64,000 nucleotides of DNA from Escherichia coli. Lineage in GTDB: Bacteria; Pseudomonadota; Gammaproteobacteria; Enterobacterales; Enterobacteriaceae. Made by a program: the position numbers and the translations under genes. This document shows positions 4,838-44,151 of this stretch, in pieces. The notes under the pieces are model-generated. The model was given only the letters and a program-made list of their open reading frames with translations, was not told the origin of the DNA and searched no databases. Position 1 is the first letter of the stretch, and each line of letters opens with the position of its first letter. The DNA is taken from NCBI RefSeq assembly GCF_041248615.1, contig NZ_CP158426.1; one strand, given 5' to 3'.

Positions 4838-6136
4838 TTAATGTTGCGGTGCGGGATCGTTATGTGTTTCCTGCGCCACCTCAATCGCTGGTTTGTTCTG
4901 CAACACGGTCCAGATAACCAGCGCACCCAGCAGGTCAAATACTGCCAGAACTGCGAACAGCGGGCTGAAGCCGATGGTGTCAGCCAGTGCACCGACAACC
5001 AGCGCAAACAGCGTACTTGCCAGCCATGCGGACATCCCGGTTAAACCGTTTGCCGTTGCCACTTCGTTACGACCAAACACGTCAGAAGAGAGCGTAATCA
5101 GCGCGCCAGACAGTGCCTGGTGAGCAAAACCACCGATACACAGCAGCATAATCGCGACATACGGGTTGGTGAACAGACCGATCATACCCGGGCCAATCAT
5201 CAGCACAGCACCCAGCGTTACGACCATCTTACGGGAAACGATCAGGTTCACACCAAACCAACGCTGGAACAGCGGCGGCAGGTAACCACCGAGGATACAA
5301 CCGAGGTCAGCAAACAGCATCGGCATCCAGGCAAACATCGCGATCTCTTTCAGGTTAAAGCCGTAAACTTTAAACATGAACAGCGGGATCCACGCGTTAA
5401 AAGTACCCCATGCCGGTTCTGCCAGGAAGCGCGGCAGCGCGATACCCCAGAACTGACGGTTACGCAGGATCTGACCAACGGACATTTTCTTCGCTGTGTC
5501 AACCTGGTGCTGGGCTTCCTGACCATTAATAATGTAGTCGCGTTCTTCATCGGTCAGATGCTTCTGGTCGCGCGGATGTTTATAGAAAATCAGCCATGCC
5601 ATCGCCCAGATAAAGCTCAATGCACCGGAGATGATAAATGCCATCTGCCAGCTGTGCATTACGATTGCCCATACCACCAGCGGCGGTGCAATCATCGCAC
5701 CAATCGAAGAACCTACGTTAAAGTAACCTACCGCGATGGAACGCTCTTTCGCCGGGAACCATTCGGAGCTGGCTTTCAGACCCGCCGGGATCATCGCTGC
5801 TTCCGCGGCACCGACCGCACCACGAGCAACAGCCAGGCCGCCCCAGCTACCTGCCAGCGCGGTTGCACCACAGAACACGGCCCACAGCACAGCAAACATT
5901 GCATAACCGATTTTCGTACCCAGCACATCCAGTACATAACCTGCTACCGGTTGCATGACCGTATAAGCAGCAGAATAGGCTGCGATGATATAGGAATACT
6001 GTTGGGTGGAGATGTTTAACTCTTCCATCAGAGTTGGCGCAGCTGCCGCCACAGTGTTACGCGTCAGGTAACCAAGCACGGTGCCGAGCGTCACCAGTGC
6101 GATCATATACCAACGTAACCCTTTAATTTTACGCAT
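4838..6136 (-). CDS. exuT: hexuronate transporter (MFS)
   Basis: ORF-track protein matches ExuT throughout; start trimmed to MRKIKGLRWYM (ATG at 6134-6136) for the 432-aa K-12-type product. The 472-aa upstream ATG at 6256 is an alternative. Confidence 0.9.
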   Translation of the reverse strand: MRKIKGLRWYMIALVTLGTVLGYLTRNTVAAAAPTLMEELNISTQQYSYIIAAYSAAYTVMQPVAGYVLDVLGTKIGYAMFAVLWAVFCGATALAGSWGGLAVARGAVGAAEAAMIPAGLKASSEWFPAKERSIAVGYFNVGSSIGAMIAPPLVVWAIVMHSWQMAFIISGALSFIWAMAWLIFYKHPRDQKHLTDEERDYIINGQEAQHQVDTAKKMSVGQILRNRQFWGIALPRFLAEPAWGTFNAWIPLFMFKVYGFNLKEIAMFAWMPMLFADLGCILGGYLPPLFQRWFGVNLIVSRKMVVTLGAVLMIGPGMIGLFTNPYVAIMLLCIGGFAHQALSGALITLSSDVFGRNEVATANGLTGMSAWLASTLFALVVGALADTIGFSPLFAVLAVFDLLGALVIWTVLQNKPAIEVAQETHNDPAPQH

Positions 6137-8031
<1,895 letters not shown>

Positions 8032-33888: not shown

Positions 33889-34653
33889 ATGAATAACTCC
33901 CCCCGCTACCCGCAGCGCGTTCGCAATGATCTGCGCTTCCGTGAACTGACTGTGCTACGCGTTGAGCGTATTAGCGCCGGTTTTCAGCGCATTGTCCTTG
34001 GCGGCGAGGCGCTGGACGGTTTTACATCGCGCGGCTTTGACGATCACAGCAAACTCTTCTTTCCTCAATCTGATGCTCACTTTGTGCCGCCAACGGTAAC
34101 GGAAGAGGGTATCGTCTGGCCGGAAGGACCACGCCCACCGTCGCGTGACTATACGCCGCTGTATGACGAACTACGCCATGAACTGGCGATTGATTTCTTT
34201 ATTCACGAAGGTGGCGTCGCCAGCAGCTGGGCAATGCAGGCGCAACCGGGCGATAAACTTACGGTGGCAGGTCCGCGCGGTTCGCTGGTGGTGCCAGAGG
34301 ATTACGCGTATCAGCTGTATGTCTGCGATGAATCCGGAATGCCCGCACTGCGCCGCCGCCTGGAAACGTTGAGCAAACTTGCCGTTAAACCGCAAGTTAG
34401 CGCACTGGTTAGCGTGCGGGATCACGCCTGCCAGGATTATCTCGCGCACCTTGATGGTTTTAATATCGAATGGCTGGCGCATGATGAGCAGGCGGTAGAT
34501 GCGCGTCTGGCGCAGATGCAAATCCCTGCCGATGATTACTTCATCTGGATAACCGGCGAAGGCAAAGTCGTTAAGAATTTAAGCCGCCGCTTTGAAGCGG
34601 AACAGTATGATCCACAGCGGGTACGTGCAGCGGCTTACTGGCACGCAAAGTAA
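33889..34653 (+). CDS. yqjH: NADPH-dependent ferric-siderophore reductase (siderophore-interacting protein family)
   Basis: 254 aa, MNNSPRYPQRVRNDLRFRELTVLRVERISAGFQRIVLGG. Confidence 0.88.
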   Translation: MNNSPRYPQRVRNDLRFRELTVLRVERISAGFQRIVLGGEALDGFTSRGFDDHSKLFFPQSDAHFVPPTVTEEGIVWPEGPRPPSRDYTPLYDELRHELAIDFFIHEGGVASSWAMQAQPGDKLTVAGPRGSLVVPEDYAYQLYVCDESGMPALRRRLETLSKLAVKPQVSALVSVRDHACQDYLAHLDGFNIEWLAHDEQAVDARLAQMQIPADDYFIWITGEGKVVKNLSRRFEAEQYDPQRVRAAAYWHAK

Positions 34654-34659
34654 CTGATA

Positions 34660-34702
34660 TATAAAAAGAAAAAGGCTGATGATTTCTCGTCAGCCTTTGC
34701 TA
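34660..34702 (-). terminator. rho-independent terminator downstream of the tRNA fragment
   Basis: Minus-strand hairpin AAAGGCTGACGAGAAATCATCAGCCTTT followed by a T-run, directly 3' of the tRNA 3' end. Confidence 0.55.
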
Positions 34703-34706
34703 TATC

Positions 34707-34753
34707 TGGTGGCCCCTGCTGGACTTGAACCAGCGACCAAGCGATTATGAGTC
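34707..34753 (-). tRNA. ileX: 3'-terminal 47-nt fragment of a CAU-anticodon tRNA (ileX-type tRNA-Ile2); not a complete gene; candidate island att site
   Basis: Revcomp reads GACTCATAATCGCTTGGTCGCTGGTTCAAGTCCAGCAGGGGCCACCA (anticodon loop with CAU, T-arm, acceptor 3' strand, CCA); upstream sequence cannot pair as a 5' acceptor strand, so the gene is truncated at the anticodon stem. Confidence 0.7.
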
Positions 34754-34879
34754 ATGAGGCAAGTTCGTTCTATATTGTTTTTGTTTGTTCGTGATTGCTT
34801 TATTAGTTGTTTGTAATCAATAAATTATGTGATTTTCCCTGTCTCCGCTTGGTTCCGTTTTTTCTTCATTGTACGATCG

Positions 34880-34903
34880 TTACCTGACCCATTACCTGAC
34901 CCA
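34880..34903 (+). repeat. perfect tandem 12-bp direct repeat TTACCTGACCCA x2 (candidate integrase arm-type sites)
   Basis: Two adjacent identical copies about 50 bp upstream of the integrase start, inside the att-proximal region. Confidence 0.4.
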
Positions 34904-34949
34904 AAATCACGAGTTATTCTGATTGTTACTGGTTTAGAAAAGAGGTTCT

Positions 34950-36266
34950 ATGGCCGTCAATCTTACTGAAACAGCCATCCGAGCATTGAAAGCAAAAAAG
35001 ACATCGTTCTATGTCTGGAGCAACAGCTCTCAACGTGGCACTGGACGACTTGGTGTCAAAGTTCAGCCTTCTGGCAGCAAGATTTTCTATTTCCGCTATT
35101 ACGTGGAAAAAGGGAAAAAAGAAAGATTCATTCAATTGGGTATATGGCCTGAGATGAAACTGGCCACAGCGAATGAACTGGCAAAAAAGTATGGTGCCTG
35201 GCTCATTGAAGGAAAGGCTCCCCAGGCAGAACTGGAACGACAACAGTTTGCAGAACAGCAGCGGATACAACTCCATCAATCACAGGGCTCATTTGAAGCA
35301 TTGATTCATGGTTATGTTAACAAAATGAAAATTGATAATAAGAGGACATGGCAGGATGTTCTGAAACGCCTTGAAAATGAATGCTATACAGTGATCCCCC
35401 GTGAAACTAAAGCTAAAGATGTGACTTCCGGACAGATTAAACATATCCTGGCCGGGATCATTCAGCGCGGTGCTGTGGTTCACTCTAACCGGATCCGTTC
35501 TTACCTGATGGCTGCATTTAACTATGGACTGAAAGCAGATAACGATCCGATGAACACAAGTGTAGGGATTACTTTTGGGCTGGAGGCAAATCCGGTGTCA
35601 GTGATACCGAAACAGTCATCTGCTGAAAAAGTCGGTGATACCTGGCTGACACTTGAAGAGTTGCGTTTTCTAATGGAACATTTTGCTGAAGCAACCAACG
35701 TTGGATTATTGATGCAACATTTGATCCGATTCTGTATCTATACCGGAGGGCAACGTCCTTTCGAAATGATCGCCAGTCAGTGGTGTGATGTTGATTTTCA
35801 ACAAAAAACGCTGCTGGTGACTGCTGATGTCTCTAAAAATAAACGAGAGCATTTGATACCGTTGACTGAATCAGCATTACAGGAATTATCCTGTGTGCAG
35901 GAGTTAACAAAAGAAAAATCCAGCCCTTACATTTTTCCACTTTCGACTAATGGTAAGCGTCCGGTTCGTACGGACAGTCTGGCTCGCGCTATCATGTATT
36001 TCCGGGCTTTTAATCCTGACTTTAAAATTTTTACAGCACGTGACTTACGTCGGACCTGTAAAACGTTAATGGGAGAAGCTGGGATCAGTAAGGAAATCCG
36101 CGATCGTATTCAAAATCATGCGTTGAACGATGTCAGTTCAAAACATTATGATCGATACGATTATTTGCCAGAAAAACGCAGAGCACTTGAGATCTGGGAG
36201 GACCGGGTTAATAACTATCAACAGCAAACAGGCAATAATGTTGTCAATCTGTTTGGCAGAAGGTGA
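34950..36266 (+). CDS. tyrosine site-specific integrase (P4-type)
   Basis: 438 aa; N-terminal arm-binding-like region (KVQPSGSKIFYFRYYVEKGKK); C-terminal catalytic-region motifs (HDLRRT..., ...HYDRYDY); good ribosome-binding site AAAAGAGG. Confidence 0.88.
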   Translation: MAVNLTETAIRALKAKKTSFYVWSNSSQRGTGRLGVKVQPSGSKIFYFRYYVEKGKKERFIQLGIWPEMKLATANELAKKYGAWLIEGKAPQAELERQQFAEQQRIQLHQSQGSFEALIHGYVNKMKIDNKRTWQDVLKRLENECYTVIPRETKAKDVTSGQIKHILAGIIQRGAVVHSNRIRSYLMAAFNYGLKADNDPMNTSVGITFGLEANPVSVIPKQSSAEKVGDTWLTLEELRFLMEHFAEATNVGLLMQHLIRFCIYTGGQRPFEMIASQWCDVDFQQKTLLVTADVSKNKREHLIPLTESALQELSCVQELTKEKSSPYIFPLSTNGKRPVRTDSLARAIMYFRAFNPDFKIFTARDLRRTCKTLMGEAGISKEIRDRIQNHALNDVSSKHYDRYDYLPEKRRALEIWEDRVNNYQQQTGNNVVNLFGRR

Positions 36267-36395
36267 GGGAGTTCCTGGTTGCTGTACGAATTGTGTACAA
36301 TTGATGGGTATTGTTGATGCACTTGGTTCTTGTATTGTTTACTATAATTATTGAGGTAAATTTTCGTGCCGGTATTACTCAGAGGGGATTCAAAA

Positions 36396-36992
36396 ATGGC
36401 TGTAATTCCAATGTCTTACTCCCCTGCTACTGTAGCTCGTCGTTTTTCGATACTGGATGGAGTAACTATTCAGGGCGTGCTTTACCAGATCATCTGGGAT
36501 CCAAAGACTCCGTTTGCTGCGGTAATCGAAGCTGCACCTTCTGTTATTGATGGTGATGTTCGCCATAAGGTTGTTGCCACTCTGGAGCTTCAGCGTCGTC
36601 CCCGGCTTGAAGGCGTGTTTGTCCAGAAATTCTGGGAAGAACAGGATGTTGCTCAGATTGAAGGGATTGTTGTCGATGGCGCTGTACGTGATGTTGGTCT
36701 TGCAACGTTTGTTTATGAAACGATAGTCACAAAAGCGGGCGTTGTACTATTAAGTGATAACGAGCAATATGAAGGAGGTAAAGCTCTCTGGCAGCATATT
36801 GCGCGTCGTTCAACGAATCTGAAGGTGTTTATTTTAGATACTGATTCCGCACGGTATTACCCGTTTGATGGCGAACGGATCAGTTATGACGGGAAAAGCA
36901 TCCCGGAATCAGAAATCTGGAGTGAACATCCTGAGCGAAACAGACACGCTGTCGTTCTTGTGGCTGAATCTGTTAATGGTAAAGCCGCATAA
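36396..36992 (+). CDS. hypothetical protein (possible GNAT-like fold, unverified)
   Basis: 198 aa from the ATG with AGAGGGGA ribosome-binding site (ORF track starts 10 codons earlier at GTG); segment IEGIVVDGAVRDVGLATFVYETIV loosely resembles GNAT motif A; no confident family assignment. Confidence 0.5.
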   Translation: MAVIPMSYSPATVARRFSILDGVTIQGVLYQIIWDPKTPFAAVIEAAPSVIDGDVRHKVVATLELQRRPRLEGVFVQKFWEEQDVAQIEGIVVDGAVRDVGLATFVYETIVTKAGVVLLSDNEQYEGGKALWQHIARRSTNLKVFILDTDSARYYPFDGERISYDGKSIPESEIWSEHPERNRHAVVLVAESVNGKAA

Positions 36993-37074
36993 TTTGCTGA
37001 GTGTCTCATTTTTTGAGATCTTGCTGGAAAGTCTCCTTTGGGGATAGCGAACTGCTATCCCCTTTCTCAGTGAG

Positions 37075-38679
37075 TTACTGTTCGACCAGACATTTTCCCC
37101 ATAAAGGTCGTATCGAGTATCTATCTTCGCTATATGGATTTATTTTATTTTTTTCCCTCTGTGCTATCAGCAACGTGTCGATCTCATCCTTAATAATGTG
37201 TTGAACTGCTTGACGGTAACGGTTAAGCGAAGTGTCACTGATATCTTGTGGAAGTTGTAGACTGCCATCTGCCTTGACAAGTTCATTCACACCATCTTTA
37301 ATTCTGCGTCCCTGACCATCAGGTATACCTTCATTCAGATCATAGCCTTTTAGTCCTGCAAGACGAATATTCACGTCAATCTTTTCTGTACGTATCTTTT
37401 TGTTACTTACCAACAGAATTTTATTGGCGTTATACCATTTTTCAAATATTTCCAGTTGTTTCATGATGTTTGTGAAGTTATTCAGTTCGCTCCTGAATTC
37501 AATAGATTTTCTAATTTTACGCTCTTTTGCATCAATGTTTATTCCTGGATAATTTATTTCCATTTTTAACGGTTCTGTGTATGCCTGTTGCAGGCAATCA
37601 GCAAGATTCATTGCTGCATCCTGCAGGGTATTGGTATAAATCAGTTTCAGAAGTTCATCACGCTGTATAGTGATTTGACAATAGTCTTTTTCCCATGCGG
37701 TGGTGTTTTCAATCGTGTCACTTTCATCGGAAATAATTGTTGTGAACTTCCAGGTGTAACGAATAAAATCATTTCCTTTAAAATATTGCACTAATTTATT
37801 TAACCATTCATATATTTCCAGAGCATAAAGTTTAACGTATCCATCATATATTATCTTTGTTGCATTTTTGTTGGCTAGCGAAAACATTTTGTCCACGAAT
37901 TCTGTACGCCCGATTGTTAGCAATTGTTTTCTAAGTTTACTCACATCGTTAGTATCTGGTTTCTCACAATTCCAGGGACTTTTGTATTCATTTTCAAAAG
38001 GAGAAAGCCATTCAGGAATCTCTGTTTCTGAGTGATAGCAGTTGTTAATAGCCAAACCAAGGGTTCTGGCAAGTATCGCTGATTCATCAATTTGATGGTA
38101 TCGGTTCAGTTGTTCCAGTAATTCTTTAGTACATGAGTGCGCAACAGAAAGATCCTGATGGCAATATCCTTGTCGAACCAGAGCGGGAAGTGGTGAGCAA
38201 TGAGCTTTACAATCTGTCAGAATATTGAACAAATCGTTTCTGACGAATTCTTCCATCTCAGGTGTTTTCCAGCCACCACTATTTTGGCCGACAAATTTTG
38301 CTGTTGGTTCCCTGTTCATATCTCCCCAGGTTTTCAGGCTGACGAGTCTGTTATCAAAACCATTGTATAAATGGCACATAACCTGAAAAGCAGCATACAG
38401 ATCTTTAGATAGTGGATTATCGGTCTCACTTATGGAGTAGTTCTCTCTGTTTTTCTCTAAAATACTTTGGAGTTTTGTGTTAGCGCGTAATGCCGAGAGA
38501 ATCCGATGTTGTTCATCAAACCAAGGACGATATTCTGGATCCAGATACAATCTGCGTGCTTTGAAAATGAGTAGAAGCAACTGTTCGGAAACAGCTTCAT
38601 GTATGTGGGGAAACGGCATGGAGGTGCCGGATAAAACACGATAGTACGGGTGGTTTGTTTTTACCTTTTTAGTTACCAT
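37075..38679 (-). CDS. hypothetical protein, 534 aa, no recognisable domain
   Basis: Long uninterrupted ORF in an AT-rich segment flanked by long AT-rich non-coding DNA; no Walker A motif; one Rx4H element (RQGYCH) is insufficient for a HEPN call. Confidence 0.6.
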   Translation of the reverse strand: MVTKKVKTNHPYYRVLSGTSMPFPHIHEAVSEQLLLLIFKARRLYLDPEYRPWFDEQHRILSALRANTKLQSILEKNRENYSISETDNPLSKDLYAAFQVMCHLYNGFDNRLVSLKTWGDMNREPTAKFVGQNSGGWKTPEMEEFVRNDLFNILTDCKAHCSPLPALVRQGYCHQDLSVAHSCTKELLEQLNRYHQIDESAILARTLGLAINNCYHSETEIPEWLSPFENEYKSPWNCEKPDTNDVSKLRKQLLTIGRTEFVDKMFSLANKNATKIIYDGYVKLYALEIYEWLNKLVQYFKGNDFIRYTWKFTTIISDESDTIENTTAWEKDYCQITIQRDELLKLIYTNTLQDAAMNLADCLQQAYTEPLKMEINYPGINIDAKERKIRKSIEFRSELNNFTNIMKQLEIFEKWYNANKILLVSNKKIRTEKIDVNIRLAGLKGYDLNEGIPDGQGRRIKDGVNELVKADGSLQLPQDISDTSLNRYRQAVQHIIKDEIDTLLIAQREKNKINPYSEDRYSIRPLWGKCLVEQ

Positions 38680-39458
38680 AATGTTAAATTCTTCCGTCTA
38701 TTGCATAGCTGTTTCCAGTAGAGAAACTTGATACAGTCCTTTGTCAGGACATTGATACAGAGTTAACAGCCTCTACGAAATGGGAATCAGTTATGCAGTG
38801 GCATTATACGATGCTGAATCTAATACGATATCCTTAGCGTTTATTCCTGATTTTTTTACGAGCATTCCCTTTTGTTGCATATTGCTCAGGACGCAAATGA
38901 TTTTACGGTTATAGCCCTCTACAGTCACGTCACTTTCATCTGAAAATATGTATCGTTTTCATTCAATTATTATCTTTTGTCTGCACTTTAGCTTTAGAAA
39001 GTTGGCAAAAATCAACTCCCTCTTACAAGTTCTATTATCGCCAGAAGATAATTTTGTGAACTTCGTCACGTTTTCAAACTAATGTTGTGGGGGCTTTTCT
39101 GGGGAGAATTTTTGGTCACTACCCCTCCTCTTGATATCATAGATTATAACAAGATTTTTTTTGTTTTTGTCTGCATAAAATAACCTACGAATATTGTGAT
39201 TTTGATTTTTATTTTGTATACCAAAAAGCATTGTTTAAGTTATTTTTATATTGTGACTTTCTTTGTTGTTATTGTGTTATTAGAAGTCAGTTAATTAAAT
39301 CATTTCTCGCAATTTGATTTCTTGGTTGTGCAAATGTATTGTTTTGCTCGTGAGTTGCTGGTGCTGTTCAACAGCATACCACTACAGATAGATGTAGTGA
39401 TTTGAGCAGCTCACATGCATATACAATCTGAAAATCATGAATATATAAGGAGAGCAAT

Positions 39459-39686
39459 ATGTGGAAGCCGTTAAGAGATGAGAACCGTTTATCAATTTTG
39501 AAGATCTATGGATACACCTGTGACAGACTGGTACGAGAAAAGGAACGCCAGAAAATTACGTCTATTTCTCGTTCACAAGCCTGGAAACTGGAACGTGAAG
39601 GAAAATTCCCGCCACGTAAAACTATTGGAAAGAAATCCTGTGGGTGGTTATTAAGTGATCTATTGTGGTGGATTAGTCAGTATTAA
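39459..39686 (+). CDS. AlpA-family phage/island transcriptional regulator
   Basis: 75 aa; pattern RLV...ISRSQAW.LEREGKFP...GKKSCGW fits the AlpA (prophage CP4-57 regulatory) fold; ribosome-binding site TAAGGAGAG. Confidence 0.75.
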   Translation: MWKPLRDENRLSILKIYGYTCDRLVREKERQKITSISRSQAWKLEREGKFPPRKTIGKKSCGWLLSDLLWWISQY

Positions 39687-39748
39687 CCTTATAGTATCAG
39701 AATAATATATATTTCTATATTTTAATTTTATAATTAAAAAGGAGTTTC

Positions 39749-40495
39749 ATGATGAAACGTGTCTCTTTCTCTCTTGCAGAAACATATGAAGCTGATGTAA
39801 TTAAAAAGTATCAGCATTTAAAAAAATGCTCATTTTCAGCAGCGATTAAAGAGTGTTTAAAGCTAGGGGCTCCTGTTTTAAACAGGATAAATGAAAATAT
39901 TGCTGCTATAACTGATATAGAGGATAAGCTACGTCAGTTTTTTAATGAGGAACCATTTGTGCAACGGACAAAGCCTGAAATAACAAAAGGAGAGTTTTTT
40001 CATAGCATTTATAAATCGCATATCAAATATGAATATGATGTTCTCGATAGAAAGATATTTCCTCATGAAAGCACCAGAAATGCTATGGGAGTTGCAGAGA
40101 AAAAGGGAATTAAAGAGAATGCGACCTTAATGCTGGAATATTATAAAGTTGAGAAGGCAATTTGTATTTACACGAACAGAAAAGTTTCCCATACCCTGAA
40201 TCGTGCAGGAGGGTTTTATAAAACCATTCTGATTAAAACCAGTGTTTTTGGGGATTATTTTTTTGACTTTTGCAATTCAGTTTGCCTGCCGATAGATGAG
40301 TTGATTGAGTATGGTACGAAAGAAACAGTGAGGCGACATCAGATTCGTAGTACAGGATTTTGTACTTTTCATATTCCGATTTTTTATATCAATAATAAGG
40401 CTGTAATAGTGCCTGTTCTGAGAACAGAGGAAGTTTCACAAAGTTCCAGAACAGGTGGAGATGTTATTATTATTAACCCATTTGAAGATGAATGA
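39749..40495 (+). CDS. hypothetical protein
   Basis: 248 aa, AT-rich codon usage, ribosome-binding site AAAAGGAG; no family recognised. Confidence 0.55.
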   Translation: MMKRVSFSLAETYEADVIKKYQHLKKCSFSAAIKECLKLGAPVLNRINENIAAITDIEDKLRQFFNEEPFVQRTKPEITKGEFFHSIYKSHIKYEYDVLDRKIFPHESTRNAMGVAEKKGIKENATLMLEYYKVEKAICIYTNRKVSHTLNRAGGFYKTILIKTSVFGDYFFDFCNSVCLPIDELIEYGTKETVRRHQIRSTGFCTFHIPIFYINNKAVIVPVLRTEEVSQSSRTGGDVIIINPFEDE

Positions 40496-40716
40496 TTATG
40501 GCCCGCGTAGATTTATTCATAACCCAGAAATCGTGGTGTAAATGATGAACAGAAACCGCTTTCTGAGGTTAAAGAGAGCAATCATTACCCGGGAGTGGCC
40601 AACTCTTTTATCGAGTACTTTTCCGATGTATCTGGAGAGCCTCCCTTAGAAAAGAGTAATGCGACTCAGGAAAAAACAGGTTCAATAATTAATTCATGAC
40701 ACCAGTTTGAGGCATT

Positions 40717-41277
40717 ATGGCGAGTTTTGCATACATAGACTCTGAAAAATGGTCAAAACTTAATCGCTTAAAATCCATGATTCAGAGATATTTTAAAGAA
40801 CCACTATTGCAGTTAACAGGCGAATTGGGTCGCCCGGATTATACTCTGGCAGACAGAAAACGGTTAGTTCGACTCCTGACGCAGGATATGCAAAGGGGTG
40901 ATATTCTGATTACTAAATCGTTAACTTGTTTTGGTAATACGCCGGAAAAAATACAGGAGGTTTTATCTTTAAGTATCAGACAAGGTATTAATATTTGCTT
41001 TTTTACGTCATCAGAGTTGCCGGATGGTGATGATATTCCTGTGGTACTCACCGGGATGATTTTACCTACAGATATTAGAGGAAAAATTCCCGACATCAGT
41101 ATCCGGAAAATTAAAAGAAAACCAGGAAGGAAAGAAGGGAGTATTCATAGTAAAAATATCAGACAGTTGAAATTGCAGGGGTTCAGTCAGTCACAAACAG
41201 CCAGAAAATTAAGCATCAGTTTATCCACTGTAAAAAGACACTGGGATAAAGGTATTGTTGATCTAACTGCAGAGTAA
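40717..41277 (+). CDS. hypothetical protein with C-terminal resolvase/invertase-type HTH
   Basis: 186 aa; C-terminus QGFSQSQTARKLSISLSTVKRHW resembles the HTH of serine recombinases; the N-terminal region lacks an obvious catalytic serine motif, so likely a regulator or degenerate recombinase. Confidence 0.5.
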   Translation: MASFAYIDSEKWSKLNRLKSMIQRYFKEPLLQLTGELGRPDYTLADRKRLVRLLTQDMQRGDILITKSLTCFGNTPEKIQEVLSLSIRQGINICFFTSSELPDGDDIPVVLTGMILPTDIRGKIPDISIRKIKRKPGRKEGSIHSKNIRQLKLQGFSQSQTARKLSISLSTVKRHWDKGIVDLTAE

Positions 41278-41473
41278 CATTTTATAGTCCTTGTAGCTAT
41301 TGGCAATGGAGTTATAAATACATGTGCGTTGGATAGGTAATATATATTATATCTGTGATGTATAGTATATGTGTAATGATGGATATGATGTACTAATAGA
41401 GCTAATGGTATTCTGATACCAAATAATTAGTTGTGTGTAGATCATAACTCTGTTTAATGTTTTAGAACGTTCT

Positions 41474-41558
41474 AATGTAACTGTGTAACATCATCCTGTT
41501 CTCTAATGTAACAATAGGCAGTAGCGTTTTTCTTAATTGACGCCCAGAGGGTTATATA
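41474..41558. repeat. intergenic repeats: direct repeat TCTAATGTAAC x2 and perfect palindrome CCCAGAGGG-TTATATAT-CCCTCTGGG
   Basis: Read directly in the 380-bp AT-rich gap upstream of the first YagK/YfjJ-like gene; coordinates approximate. Confidence 0.45.
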
Positions 41559-41658
41559 TCCCTCTGGGAACTACTGATACGAATATTAATATCTGCTTCT
41601 GTTGTGTATTGGGTAGGTTAACTATTAGCTTATCTCTGAAAGCAAAAGGAATATTAAC

Positions 41659-42273
41659 ATGATTACGATTGAAACTCTTTACGGTGAATGTCATGAGGCT
41701 CACGGGTTAAAAATAAGAAACCAGGTGAATAACCTCTTCCAGAAACATCCCAGAATAACGGCAATACGGGTGGATCTCCATTATCCTCCCGTGATTGACA
41801 ACGGGGATACCATTACCTGTTTTCCTAACCTGAGTCCCGGAGAGATATCTCGTTTCCGTAACTCGCTGAATGCGAAAATTAATGCAGATCAACACCGTAA
41901 AAAACAACAAGGCAAACGCACCTACGCAACGTCGGTTTGTATTATCTGGGCGAAAGAATATACGCAGTCCTTTAAATGTCATTATCACGTCTGCCTTTTT
42001 TTTAACAAAGACGCCTATTACCACCTGGGAGACTATGAGCGCTCTGACACCCTGAGAGGGTTAATTACCGGAGCCTGGTACAGTGCCTTAGGGTTAGAAC
42101 TGGAAGATCACCAGGGACTAGTTCATTTCCCTGCTAATGGACGTTACATCCTGGATATTAACGATCCTGATTTCCCTGAGCAATATCAGCGCTTATTGGC
42201 ACGTCTGGATTATCTGACGAAGCTCGACACTAAAGCATCAGGCCAGCGTAACTTTGGCTACAGCGGTTTTTGA
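41659..42273 (+). CDS. YagK/YfjJ-family protein (Inovirus Gp2-like domain)
   Basis: 204 aa; architecture and motifs (…HYHVCLFFNKDAYYHLG…) typical of the YagK/YfjJ family common in CP4-like islands; ribosome-binding site AAAAGGA. Confidence 0.55.
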   Translation: MITIETLYGECHEAHGLKIRNQVNNLFQKHPRITAIRVDLHYPPVIDNGDTITCFPNLSPGEISRFRNSLNAKINADQHRKKQQGKRTYATSVCIIWAKEYTQSFKCHYHVCLFFNKDAYYHLGDYERSDTLRGLITGAWYSALGLELEDHQGLVHFPANGRYILDINDPDFPEQYQRLLARLDYLTKLDTKASGQRNFGYSGF

Positions 42274-42300
42274 CCTATTGTAACTGTAAGGTGATTTATT

Positions 42301-42867
42301 ATGTATACAGAATCAAACGTTAAGCTTTCCTGTAACGCCCTCTGGCAAAAGTATGTCCTTGCAACTCTGTATCGGGCTGCAGCTACACATCCTAAAATTA
42401 AATTATTACAATTTAAATTAATACCTTGCCCAGGTATGAACAAGGCAATTCCCTCTCTGATGGCTGATTTTACTGGTGAACTGCATAGACTAATTTCTGA
42501 ATATTTGCAGTGCAAGCGACGTAAAGATAAATCTGTTGAGCCCGCCCCTTTATATTATCTCTGGAGTAGGGAAGCTGTGGCTAACGATACCACTCCTTAT
42601 CTTATGGTACTGCTACTTAATAACGATGTCTGGTGTAAGAGTCGTGAGGTGGTGGCTCTCAGAAATCTGATTGAGCAGGCGTGGGGAAAAGTATTGGGTG
42701 AAGATAACTCCATTACACATCTGGTTGTGTATCCTGAAGTGCTGTCGTTGGTATTTGATGCAGCTAACACATACAACGCTGAGCCTGGTGTACTGGAACA
42801 GACGGCCCAGGCTTACATTGAATCGCATGGTGCCATTGAACGTCATCTTGGGTGTAGTGACTTTTAA
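42301..42867 (+). CDS. YagK/YfjJ-like paralogue (divergent)
   Basis: 188 aa; similar length and motif spacing to the preceding gene (…PYLMVLLLNNDVWCKS…); followed by hairpin AGGGCCTTTCGCTGAGAGGCCCT. Confidence 0.45.
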   Translation: MYTESNVKLSCNALWQKYVLATLYRAAATHPKIKLLQFKLIPCPGMNKAIPSLMADFTGELHRLISEYLQCKRRKDKSVEPAPLYYLWSREAVANDTTPYLMVLLLNNDVWCKSREVVALRNLIEQAWGKVLGEDNSITHLVVYPEVLSLVFDAANTYNAEPGVLEQTAQAYIESHGAIERHLGCSDF

Positions 42868-42974
42868 CGACGTCAGGTGATGCATAAGGGCCTTTCGCTG
42901 AGAGGCCCTGTTTACACAATTAAATAAGTCGAGCCCGACCAGCAATTTTGACGTTGACGGCAGGATTATTGAGG

Positions 42975-43062
42975 GGCAATCAATGTGTTCTTCGGCAGCG
43001 ATTACGGTAGTGAACGGACCTGCTGTCTGAATGGTATCGATCCGCAAGCGTATCTGCGCCAT
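42975..43062 (+). pseudogene. IS66-family transposase C-terminal remnant, truncated by IS2
   Basis: Translation FGSDYGSERTCCLNGIDPQAYLRH matches the conserved …CKLNGIDPxAYL… region of IS66-family transposases; reading frame is cut at the IS2 end at 43063. Confidence 0.4.
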
Positions 43063-44151
43063 TGGATTTGCCCCTATATTTCCAGACACCTGTTATCACT
43101 TAACCCATTACTGGCCCGCTGCCGTAGATATTCCCGTGGCGAGCGATAACCCAGTGCACTATGCGGATGCCATTCGTTATAATGCTCGAACGCCTCTGCA
43201 AGGTTCTTTGCTGCCGTTAACCCGTCTGGTTTGGGCATGATACTGATGTAATCACGCTTTATCGTTTTCACGAAGCTCTCTGCTATGCCGTTACTCTCCG
43301 GACTCCGCACCGCCGTGTTCTTCGGTTCAAGTCCCAGCATCCGGGCGAACTGGCGTGTTTCATTAGCCCGGTAGCATGAACCATTATCCGTCAGCCACTC
43401 CACTGGAGATGTCGGAAGCTCGCTGCCGAAGCGGCGTTCCACCGCTCCCAGCATGACGTCCTGTACTGTTTCACTGTCGAAGCCGCCCGTAGTGACCGCC
43501 CAGTGCAGTGCCTCACGGTCACAGCAGTCCAGCGCGAACGTGACCCCCAGTTTTTCTCCGTTATCACAGCGGAACTCGAACCCGTCAGAGCACCATCGTT
43601 GATTGCTTTCTTTCACGGCCACTTTGCCAGTATGTGCCCGTTTCGATGGCGGTACAGCGGTTTTTCGCTCAAGCAACAGCGCATTCTGGCGCATGATCCG
43701 GTAAACACGTTTGGCATTGATAGCAGGCATACCATCAAGTTCGGCCTGTCTGCGAAGCAGCGCCCATACCCGACGATAACCATACGTGGGCAGCTCTCCG
43801 ATAACATGGTGTATACGGAGAAGCACATCCGTATCATCTGAGTGACGGCTGCGGCGACCATCTTTCCAGTCATCGGTTCGTCTGAGAATGACGTGCAACT
43901 GCGCACGCGACACCCGGAGACAACGGCTGACTAAGCTTACTCCCCATCCCCGGGCAACAAGGGAGACCGTCATTCCCGGTTCAAAGCTCTGCTGAACAAT
44001 AGCGATCTTTTCCTGTGTAGTACGCCGTCTGCGTTTCTCCGGCCCTAAGACATCAATCATCTGTTCTCCAATGACTAGTCTAGAAACTAGTATTAAGACT
44101 ATCACTTATTTAAGTGATATTGATTGTCTGGAGATTCAGGGGGCCAGTCTA
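43063..44151 (-). mobile_element. IS2 copy with internal deletion of about 240 bp (1089 bp versus 1331 bp canonical)
   Basis: Both IS2 termini recognised (TGGATTTGCCCCTATATTTCCAGACA at 43063; GGGGGCCAGTCTA ending 44151); the 5 bp flanking the two ends differ (GCCAT versus TATAT), so no target-site duplication. Confidence 0.8.
43074..44105 (-). CDS. IS2 transposase, in-frame InsC-InsD fusion created by the internal deletion
   Basis: N-terminal 37 aa equal InsC ([36 protein letters not shown]); the remainder equals InsD ([21 protein letters not shown]…DNRCLEI). Confidence 0.8.

Follow-up and report, generated by a model that had tools for sequence, protein, structure and literature searches.

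A YagK/YfjJ-family protein with predicted Rep-class HUH features in the core of an Escherichia coli tRNA-ileX island

Few uncharacterised genes of enterobacterial islands are as widespread as those of the yagM-yagL-yagK and alpA-yfjI-yfjJ blocks, and such islands carry virulence, metabolic and anti-phage cargo. What do these genes do for the island that holds them? We address this question for positions 39459-42867 of a 64,000-nucleotide (nt) stretch of an Escherichia coli chromosome (contig NZ_CP158426.1; the whole stretch is called the window below), where five genes encode, in order, AlpA, a 248-amino-acid (aa) protein, a 186-aa helix-turn-helix (HTH) protein and two adjacent members of the YagK/YfjJ family. 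The original prediction took this order for the regulatory backbone of a CP4-type element. Our analysis identifies the segment as the conserved core of a CP4-6-type integrative island, with a P4-like integrase, at tRNA-ileX, and not as a collection of unrelated regulators. The backbone part of the earlier description stands, whereas a purely regulatory one is too narrow, as the first YagK-type protein bears the hallmarks of an HUH (His-hydrophobic-His) nuclease. The core comprises the following features.

39459..39686, + strand: AlpA-family excisionase/activator, 75 aa (Pfam PF05930 Phage_AlpA, 2.5e-14)
39749..40495, + strand: YagM homologue, 248 aa (PF27701/UCP007319), with an N-terminal ribbon-helix-helix, a long helix and a C-terminal alpha/beta domain
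40717..41277, + strand: YagL homologue, 186 aa, a serine recombinase of the resolvase fold that is catalytically dead, with intact GR-arm and HTH_7 DNA-binding domain
41327..41344, + strand: conserved element CGTTGGATAGGTAATATA, a probable promoter ~330 nt upstream of the YagK-type gene, unique in the window
41659..42273, + strand: YagK/YfjJ-family protein 1 (YagK1), 204 aa, Rep-class HUH endonuclease-like, with E100, H108-Y-H110 and Y185-x-x-K188
42301..42867, + strand: YagK/YfjJ-family protein 2 (YagK2), 188 aa (PF11726 at 6.6e-10, 39.6 bits against a threshold of 25.8)

All five open reading frames (ORFs) were recovered exactly where they had first been placed, and the gene order was borne out by the ORF listing together with Pfam. 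RefSeq annotates the same coding sequences in an identical E. coli chromosome, and the five ORFs are intact and identical across many genomes. Domain searches assigned the AlpA, HTH_7 and YagK_YfjJ_C families with E-values far beyond chance. NCBIfam and PADLOC contributed no further assignments, and the PHROG matches were consistent with an excisionase and a replication-initiator-like protein.

An HUH-like site in one of two YagK/YfjJ paralogues

YagK1 matches the family YagK_YfjJ_C (PF11726) at 4e-55, with 186.8 bits against a threshold of 25.8, and in BLASTP comparisons it shares 59% identity with YagK (E 4e-88) and 39% with YfjJ (E 5e-48). An exhaustive search at E<1e-3 gave 599 cluster representatives of the YagK family, 109 of which were aligned. 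Throughout these 109 sequences E100, H108, H110, W140, Y185, K188 and K192 are invariant (residues of the family are numbered here and below as in the 204-aa protein). The acidic ligand, the His-hydrophobic-His motif and the downstream Tyr-x-x-Lys reproduce both the signature and the order (HUH, then Tyr) of Rep-class HUH endonucleases. The structure model of YagK1 has the HUH nuclease fold, with Y185 and K188 sitting on helix 172-187, and its structural matches include B19 and bocavirus NS1, TnpA-REP and the Rep proteins of geminivirus, nanovirus and vientovirus; no conjugative relaxase (TrwC, TraI, MobA) was found among the top 60 of these matches. K-12 YfjJ clears the Pfam cut-off for REP_ORF2-G2P (29.9 bits against 27.8), a PHROG replication-initiation family is matched at 7e-5, and a Microvirus replication initiator gives a weak tblastn match (E 1e-3). 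By its motif and modelled fold YagK1 is a member of the HUH superfamily, and it is a probable DNA-nicking enzyme of the replication type.

YagK1 was compared with the nuclease domains of parvovirus NS1 and adeno-associated virus (AAV) Rep, SIRV1 ORF119, pMV158 RepB, the Rep of CRESS-DNA viruses and the inovirus and microvirus initiators. It shares with these Rep-class enzymes the fold, a beta-strand that bears the His-hydrophobic-His motif, an acidic residue as third ligand and, further downstream, a helix with Tyr-x-x-Lys. It differs from them in its low identity (12-15%), in being a stand-alone protein of 200 aa with no fused helicase or oligomerisation domain, and in being encoded in chromosomal islands and not in autonomous replicons; its nuclease activity is putative, unlike that of the enzymes with which it was compared.

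The neighbouring protein, YagK2, also belongs to the family (family hidden Markov model, 1.7e-16; 28% identity to YagK, E 4e-9). The two paralogues had been called divergent, and they are indeed only distantly alike, with 23% identity to each other (BLASTP E 2e-5). At the HUH site YagK2 reads P-Y-L, through the replacements H108P and H110L; K188 and K192 are lost and the alignment of the Tyr is ambiguous. The structural residues W97, E100, N116, W140, G200 and S202 are retained. Judged from these replacements, the 188-aa paralogue is probably non-catalytic.

Homologues of YagK2 are all at least 73% identical to it; they are from E. coli, apart from a few in Klebsiella and Salmonella. An intact copy with ~93-94.7% identity lies in a different E. 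coli island context (locus L044, 7821-8567), where it is preceded by a decayed remnant corresponding to the last 150 nt of a YagK1-type gene. Since the YagK2 gene of that locus follows such a remnant, the tandem arrangement is ancestral, the HUH-less gene having outlived its neighbour. Between the two copies dN/dS is 0.37 (24 substitutions). As far as sequence comparison can tell, the second gene is not a recent local duplicate; it represents a distinct lineage, known only in E. coli and close relatives, and we regard this lineage as one of conserved pseudo-enzymes, neither a fresh duplicate nor an obvious pseudogene. The neighbours of YagK2 in L044 encode Hha, DUF7828 and Zn_ribbon_11.

Companion proteins, cassette alternation and a shared promoter element

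The 186-aa protein had been predicted to derive from a recombinase, with its HTH kept and the catalytic serine lost. This description holds, the position of S10 being occupied by a glutamate. The protein shares 36% identity with YagL (BLASTP E 4e-24) and matches HTH_7 at 3.7e-5 (24.2 bits against a cutoff of 23.8), with a sub-threshold match to the Resolvase N-terminal domain (0.073; 13.6 bits against 23.3). A homologue search returned only two proteins, and the family was assembled from the genes that neighbour YagK on its upstream side in other genomes. Against the PDB, the resulting family profile matches Tn3 resolvase at 1.1e-5 and from end to end (positions 2-180/2-176), with further matches to gamma-delta resolvase (8e-5), Sin and Gin. 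A joint alignment with the resolvases shows Y6, D59, G70, the GR arm and the HTH to be invariant. The active site of the window's protein reads R8D, S10E, D67T, R68C and R71N, and the set is complete in no member of the family. Because the active-site set is replaced while the GR arm and HTH are invariant, we consider this protein a catalytically dead resolvase that has retained its DNA-binding half. It resembles the Tn3 and gamma-delta resolvases and the Gin and Hin invertases in its full-length collinearity, in Y6, D59 and G70, in the minor-groove GR arm and in the C-terminal HTH; unlike these small serine recombinases it cannot recombine, because Ser10, R8, D67, R68 and R71 are all replaced. 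YagL homologues of only 58-63 aa, reduced to the GR arm and HTH, occur at four loci from Serratia, Kluyvera, Citrobacter and Aeromonas (L017 7624-7800; L018 214-390; L020 10745-10921; L035 5798-5989).

An annotation of the same protein as a 'type I phosphoribosyltransferase' (PGAP, WP_000135718.1) was considered and rejected, as the similarity is local and confined to residues 46-119. With the single sequence as query against the PDB, hypoxanthine phosphoribosyltransferases (HPRTs) were the best matches (E 2.6e-4, residues 46-119) and resolvases reached 0.04-0.13. With the family profile the HPRT matches fall to between 1e-3 and 2e-2 and stay local, and resolvases become the best, full-length matches. 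The phosphoribosyl pyrophosphate (PRPP) loop of type I phosphoribosyltransferases is of the type VLIVEDIIDSGNT; the protein has ILITKSLTCFGNT there, without the two acidic residues. From these comparisons the newer RefSeq product name of WP_000135718.1 appears spurious.

The 248-aa protein is a YagM homologue with 31% identity (BLASTP E 4e-31). It had no match in the Pfam scan, and its C-terminal domain gave no convincing fold match in the PDB or among viral structures.

Taken together, the 248-aa, 186-aa and 204-aa proteins are collinear with yagM-yagL-yagK, so that the likeness to CP4 elements proposed at the outset is one of true homology and synteny, nearer to CP4-6 than to CP4-57. With CP4-6 (intF-yagN-ykgV-yagM-yagL-yagK) the core has in common its gene order, its orientation with respect to the integrase and the tRNA-fragment end, the placement of the module downstream of the integrase and a small excisionase-type HTH gene, and a conserved promoter element before yagK. 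The two differ in that CP4-6 has IntF with YkgV at the thrW site, whereas the element described here has a P4-type integrase of 438 aa (int438) with AlpA at ileX; the cargo is different, the HUH-less YagK paralogue is extra, and the 186-aa protein is without equivalents of Ser10 and R71, which YagL retains. CP4-57 (intA-yfjH-alpA-yfjI-yfjJ) likewise has an alpA gene followed by a YagK/YfjJ gene (39% identity) with the same upstream motif. It differs in having the DUF3987 helicase YfjI in the slot that is filled here by YagM and YagL.

This difference recurs on a wider scale. With an 11-sequence alignment as query, YagK-encoding loci were gathered into a comparison set of 38 loci from other species together with K-12 and the window. 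Between the AlpA-type and YagK-type genes there are either YagM and YagL (15 loci) or a DUF3987 protein of ~470 aa (~18 loci). The YagM-YagL arrangement occurs in Escherichia, Edaphovirga, Yersinia, Mixta, Citrobacter, Kluyvera, Serratia, Providencia, Proteus and Aeromonas, and both cassettes were seen alongside all three integrase/excisionase types (int438/AlpA, IntA/AlpA/YfjH and IntF/YagN/YkgV). E. albertii, for example, has the window's integrase, cargo and AlpA but the DUF3987 cassette. A YagK2-type gene is present in none of the 38 loci from other species. DUF3987 has been described as a family of SF6/MCM-like replicative helicases (PMC4889955), one member of which is a proven 5'-3' helicase (PMC11724360). 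YagK, Rep-class by its motifs and modelled fold, is thus constantly accompanied by either this helicase or two DNA-binding proteins. As YagM and YagL alternate with the helicase, and the alternatives are shuffled independently of the recombination genes, we infer a replication or DNA-processing module that would act after excision, and not a purely regulatory one.

Whichever cassette is present, the yagK/yfjJ-type genes tend to be preceded by the same short element, TGTTGGATAGGTAwTATA, which was found upstream of them in 29 of 37 loci across genera. The K-12 copies lie at ~7120-7140 of locus L003 (minus strand) and at ~5475-5495 of locus L004. Genomic SELEX (systematic evolution of ligands by exponential enrichment) has placed an H-NS-bound RpoD promoter, TTTAGA-16-TATAAT, between yagL and yagK of K-12 (PMC3946193), and the element coincides with this promoter. 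Its conserved portion is the promoter spacer, TGTTGGATAGG, and the invariance of this spacer suggests a bound regulator. A reading of the element as a hairpin origin is less well supported than the promoter; over 31 loci the mean folding z was -0.55, with only five loci below -1.5, and no significant hairpin was seen near the element. Separately, a near-perfect palindrome, CCCAGAGGGTTAT/ATATCCCTCTGGG, lies at 41543-41568, ~90 nt upstream of the YagK1 start, with no T-run after it.

A possible role after excision, and its rivals

The best-supported reading of this gene set, which we hold tentatively and with slightly more doubt than confidence, is that excision by AlpA and the integrase (Int) is followed by HUH nicking of the excised circle by YagK1, with recognition by YagM and YagL and modulation by YagK2. 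AlpA would act as a recombination-directionality factor and as an activator for its cognate integrase, promoting excision by Int. After excision, YagK1, made from its own promoter, would nick the island circle, and from this nick the circle would be replicated in rolling-circle fashion or processed to single strands. The ribbon-helix-helix protein (YagM-like) and the dead resolvase (YagL-like) may be sequence-specific accessory factors whose presumed DNA target is an origin or operator; they would fill the slot held by the DUF3987 replicative helicase in sister islands, and unwinding would then fall to host enzymes. YagK2, which has no HUH motif, would be unable to cut and would most likely be a DNA-binding or modulating partner.

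A more far-reaching proposal would extend these roles to the families as a whole: YagK/YfjJ proteins would be active Rep-class HUH nickases for replication or single-stranded DNA processing after AlpA-driven excision, YagM and YagL a helicase-free origin-recognition cassette that can be swapped with the DUF3987 helicase, and YagK2 a non-catalytic modulator of the nickase. We regard this proposal as possible but rather doubtful. If true, it would provide a defined function for a whole set of 'y-genes' in many enterobacterial islands.

Several observations weigh against excision followed by nicking and replication. The YagM-YagL cassette comes without a helicase or primase, so that the island would have to rely on host enzymes for its replication. 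Around the conserved element, the stretch 41290-41420 shows no significant hairpin of the kind that would point to an HUH origin (z 0.05), and no origin or nick site was identified for YagK1. Homologues of YagK occur in 67 of 72,556 plasmid records, almost only on large plasmids and never as the evident sole replicon; being so rare on plasmids, the family is not one of typical autonomous Rep proteins. The copy in the window, truncated by an insertion sequence (IS) and embedded in a 48-kb composite, may for that reason no longer be mobile. Finally, literature searches gave no biochemical or genetic data on any YagK/YfjJ, YagL or YagM protein.

The same features could be put to other uses. YagK might be a Rep-like relaxase that nicks an oriT of the excised island, with YagM and YagL as relaxosome accessories, which would allow the island to hitch-hike on conjugative plasmids. 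We consider such mobilisation unlikely, as the HUH-before-Tyr order and the top structural matches are those of the Rep/transposase class, the alternative cassette is a replicative helicase and not a coupling protein, and the surroundings of the conserved upstream element yielded no oriT-like hairpin. No more likely, in our view, is that every one of AlpA, YagM, YagL and the YagK proteins is a transcription factor in control of island genes or excision, with the HUH-like site serving for DNA binding only. Three of the five proteins do have classical DNA-binding domains (the AlpA HTH, the ribbon-helix-helix and HTH_7), the strongly conserved spacer of the YagK promoter suggests that a regulator binds there, and the YagK2 lineage persists without an HUH motif. 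The invariance of Glu, His-x-His and Tyr-x-x-Lys across 109 diverged sequences is nevertheless hard to explain without catalysis, and the replicative helicase that accompanies the YagK-type protein in sister islands also speaks against regulation alone.

Two further readings concern the element as a whole. The module might replicate the island, or attack phage DNA, only upon infection by a helper or invading phage, in the manner of phage-inducible chromosomal islands (PICI), P4-type satellites or defence islands with alpA and a Gp2-like gene. A jumbo phage transduces Pseudomonas islands that combine intY and alpA with an HTH gene and an 'inovirus Gp2-like' gene, and these islands hold defence cargo (PMC12595487); the element studied here has an uncharacterised two-gene cargo between int and alpA. 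By gene content, the islands I23, I44 and I55 of that study share with ours the integrase, alpA, the HTH gene, the 'inovirus Gp2-like' gene and cargo beside the integrase; they differ in genus, in their much larger size and in the extra core genes YqaJ and RadC. A satellite or defence role is nonetheless quite improbable for this core, which has no packaging, capsid-redirection or known defence genes, and bona fide phage genomes yielded no YagK-type gene save for the weak Microvirus Rep match. Decay is the other possibility, with the genes as functionless remnants, in this strain, of a cryptic element. The IS truncation, a frameshifted YagK1 copy in E. albertii, split or truncated copies in several loci and the H-NS silencing of the K-12 homologues would all fit a relic. 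We judge this very unlikely, as many genomes carry the five ORFs intact and identical, the dN/dS of YagK2 is 0.37 and synteny is held across genera from Escherichia to Aeromonas.

The complete, invariant HUH/Tyr site of the YagK family, the dead resolvase YagL and the alternation of YagM and YagL with a replicative helicase combine into a testable hypothesis on how such islands persist or spread after excision. The element itself belongs to a known island type, of which it is an ordinary representative truncated by an IS, and the functional proposals made here would not surprise specialists in mobile elements.

Island borders, integrase, cargo and flanking DNA

The wider setting of the core is given by the following features.

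34707..34753, - strand: 47-nt copy of the 3' end of tRNA-Ile (ileX-type), the left att repeat, by its tRNA-fragment sequence
34950..36266, + strand: P4-type tyrosine integrase, 438 aa (Pfam Arm-DNA-bind_3 1.3e-13, Phage_integrase 1.9e-10)
36366-36992 (RefSeq start corresponds to 36396), + strand: cargo ORF, 208 aa (phrog_7522, function unknown)
37075-38679, - strand: cargo ORF, 534 aa
43063..44151, - strand: IS3-family insertion sequence that ends the recognisable core (rve, rve_3, HTH_21 and HTH_Tnp_1 domains)

The window is E. coli chromosome, and the genes lie in a block of low GC content (0.34-0.45, against 0.50-0.58 in the flanks) a short way downstream of nfeF, with the tRNA-Ile fragment as its left edge. 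The stretch 34500-43200 is 100% identical to NZ_LT599825.1 and is covered to at least 80% in 255 of 5426 complete E. coli genomes, so its presence is strain-variable. An integrase beside a tRNA-derived att repeat, an alpA gene, low GC and variable presence, the traits of a CP4-type island, are thus all found here. The tRNA-Ile fragment (minus strand, ...CTCATAA...GGGGCCACCA) is the sole copy in the window; ARAGORN found no complete tRNA in the window, and an Rfam scan of 34-45 kb gave no significant match. In the identical genome an intact tRNA-Ile adjoins mug ~48.4 kb rightward (NZ_LT599825.1 819124-819199; locus L045 18125-18200). Given the left tRNA-Ile fragment with its integrase and the intact tRNA-Ile at the far end, the gene set represents the integrase-proximal core of a composite ileX island.

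The integrase matches phrog_1 at 3e-46 and shares 23% identity with K-12 IntA (E 1e-21). AlpA scores 53.3 bits against a gathering threshold of 21, with the full profile (1-51) covered, and matches phrog_2790, 'excisionase and transcriptional regulator', at 3e-22; across the compared loci the AlpA/excisionase type co-varies with the integrase type. AlpA-family proteins are excisionases of P4-like cryptic prophages and are under H-NS control (PMC5148205). Between the 534-aa gene and alpA lies an AT-rich non-coding stretch of 780 bp (38680-39458), and two 23-nt direct repeats occur in this alpA upstream region, at 39191-39213 and 39248-39270. By analogy with CP4So, it is plausible that 38680-39458 is an H-NS-silenced control region of alpA.

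Neither the 208-aa nor the 534-aa cargo protein has a significant match in Pfam, NCBIfam or PADLOC, and PADLOC found no relevant known defence system among the island proteins. Both cargo ORFs are kept together with the integrase in E. albertii (84% nt identity). As their position is often occupied by defence systems in related islands, they are candidates for a new defence system.

At its right end the island is cut immediately after the second YagK gene by the IS3-family element, which has imperfect terminal inverted repeats in its sequence, and homology to the related locus L044 ends at 43062. This element is only ~1.09 kb long, and HTH_Tnp_1 and rve are joined, free of any frameshift, in a single 343-aa ORF; it resembles a copy that has lost internal sequence and whose transposase has become fused.

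Only one 'plasmid' record carries this module. CP101363.1 (L046, 1-11755) was considered as an excised circle, its YagK1 being 100% identical, and was rejected; filed as a Salmonella enterica plasmid, it is a linear contig of 11.7 kb that holds chromosomal aer-nfeR-nfeF and the island as far as the IS. The contig is probably chromosomal and was entered as a plasmid in error, and its organism is possibly mis-assigned.

Directly before the intact tRNA-Ile at the far end of the composite lies a GTPase/Ag43/DUF932/antirestriction/RadC/YeeU-CbtA/DUF4942 block, which we take to be typical of CP4-type elements. The ~48.4-kb composite also holds a raffinose/sucrose-type sugar cluster, IS remnants, a group II intron, lactate-utilisation genes and a type I restriction-modification system.

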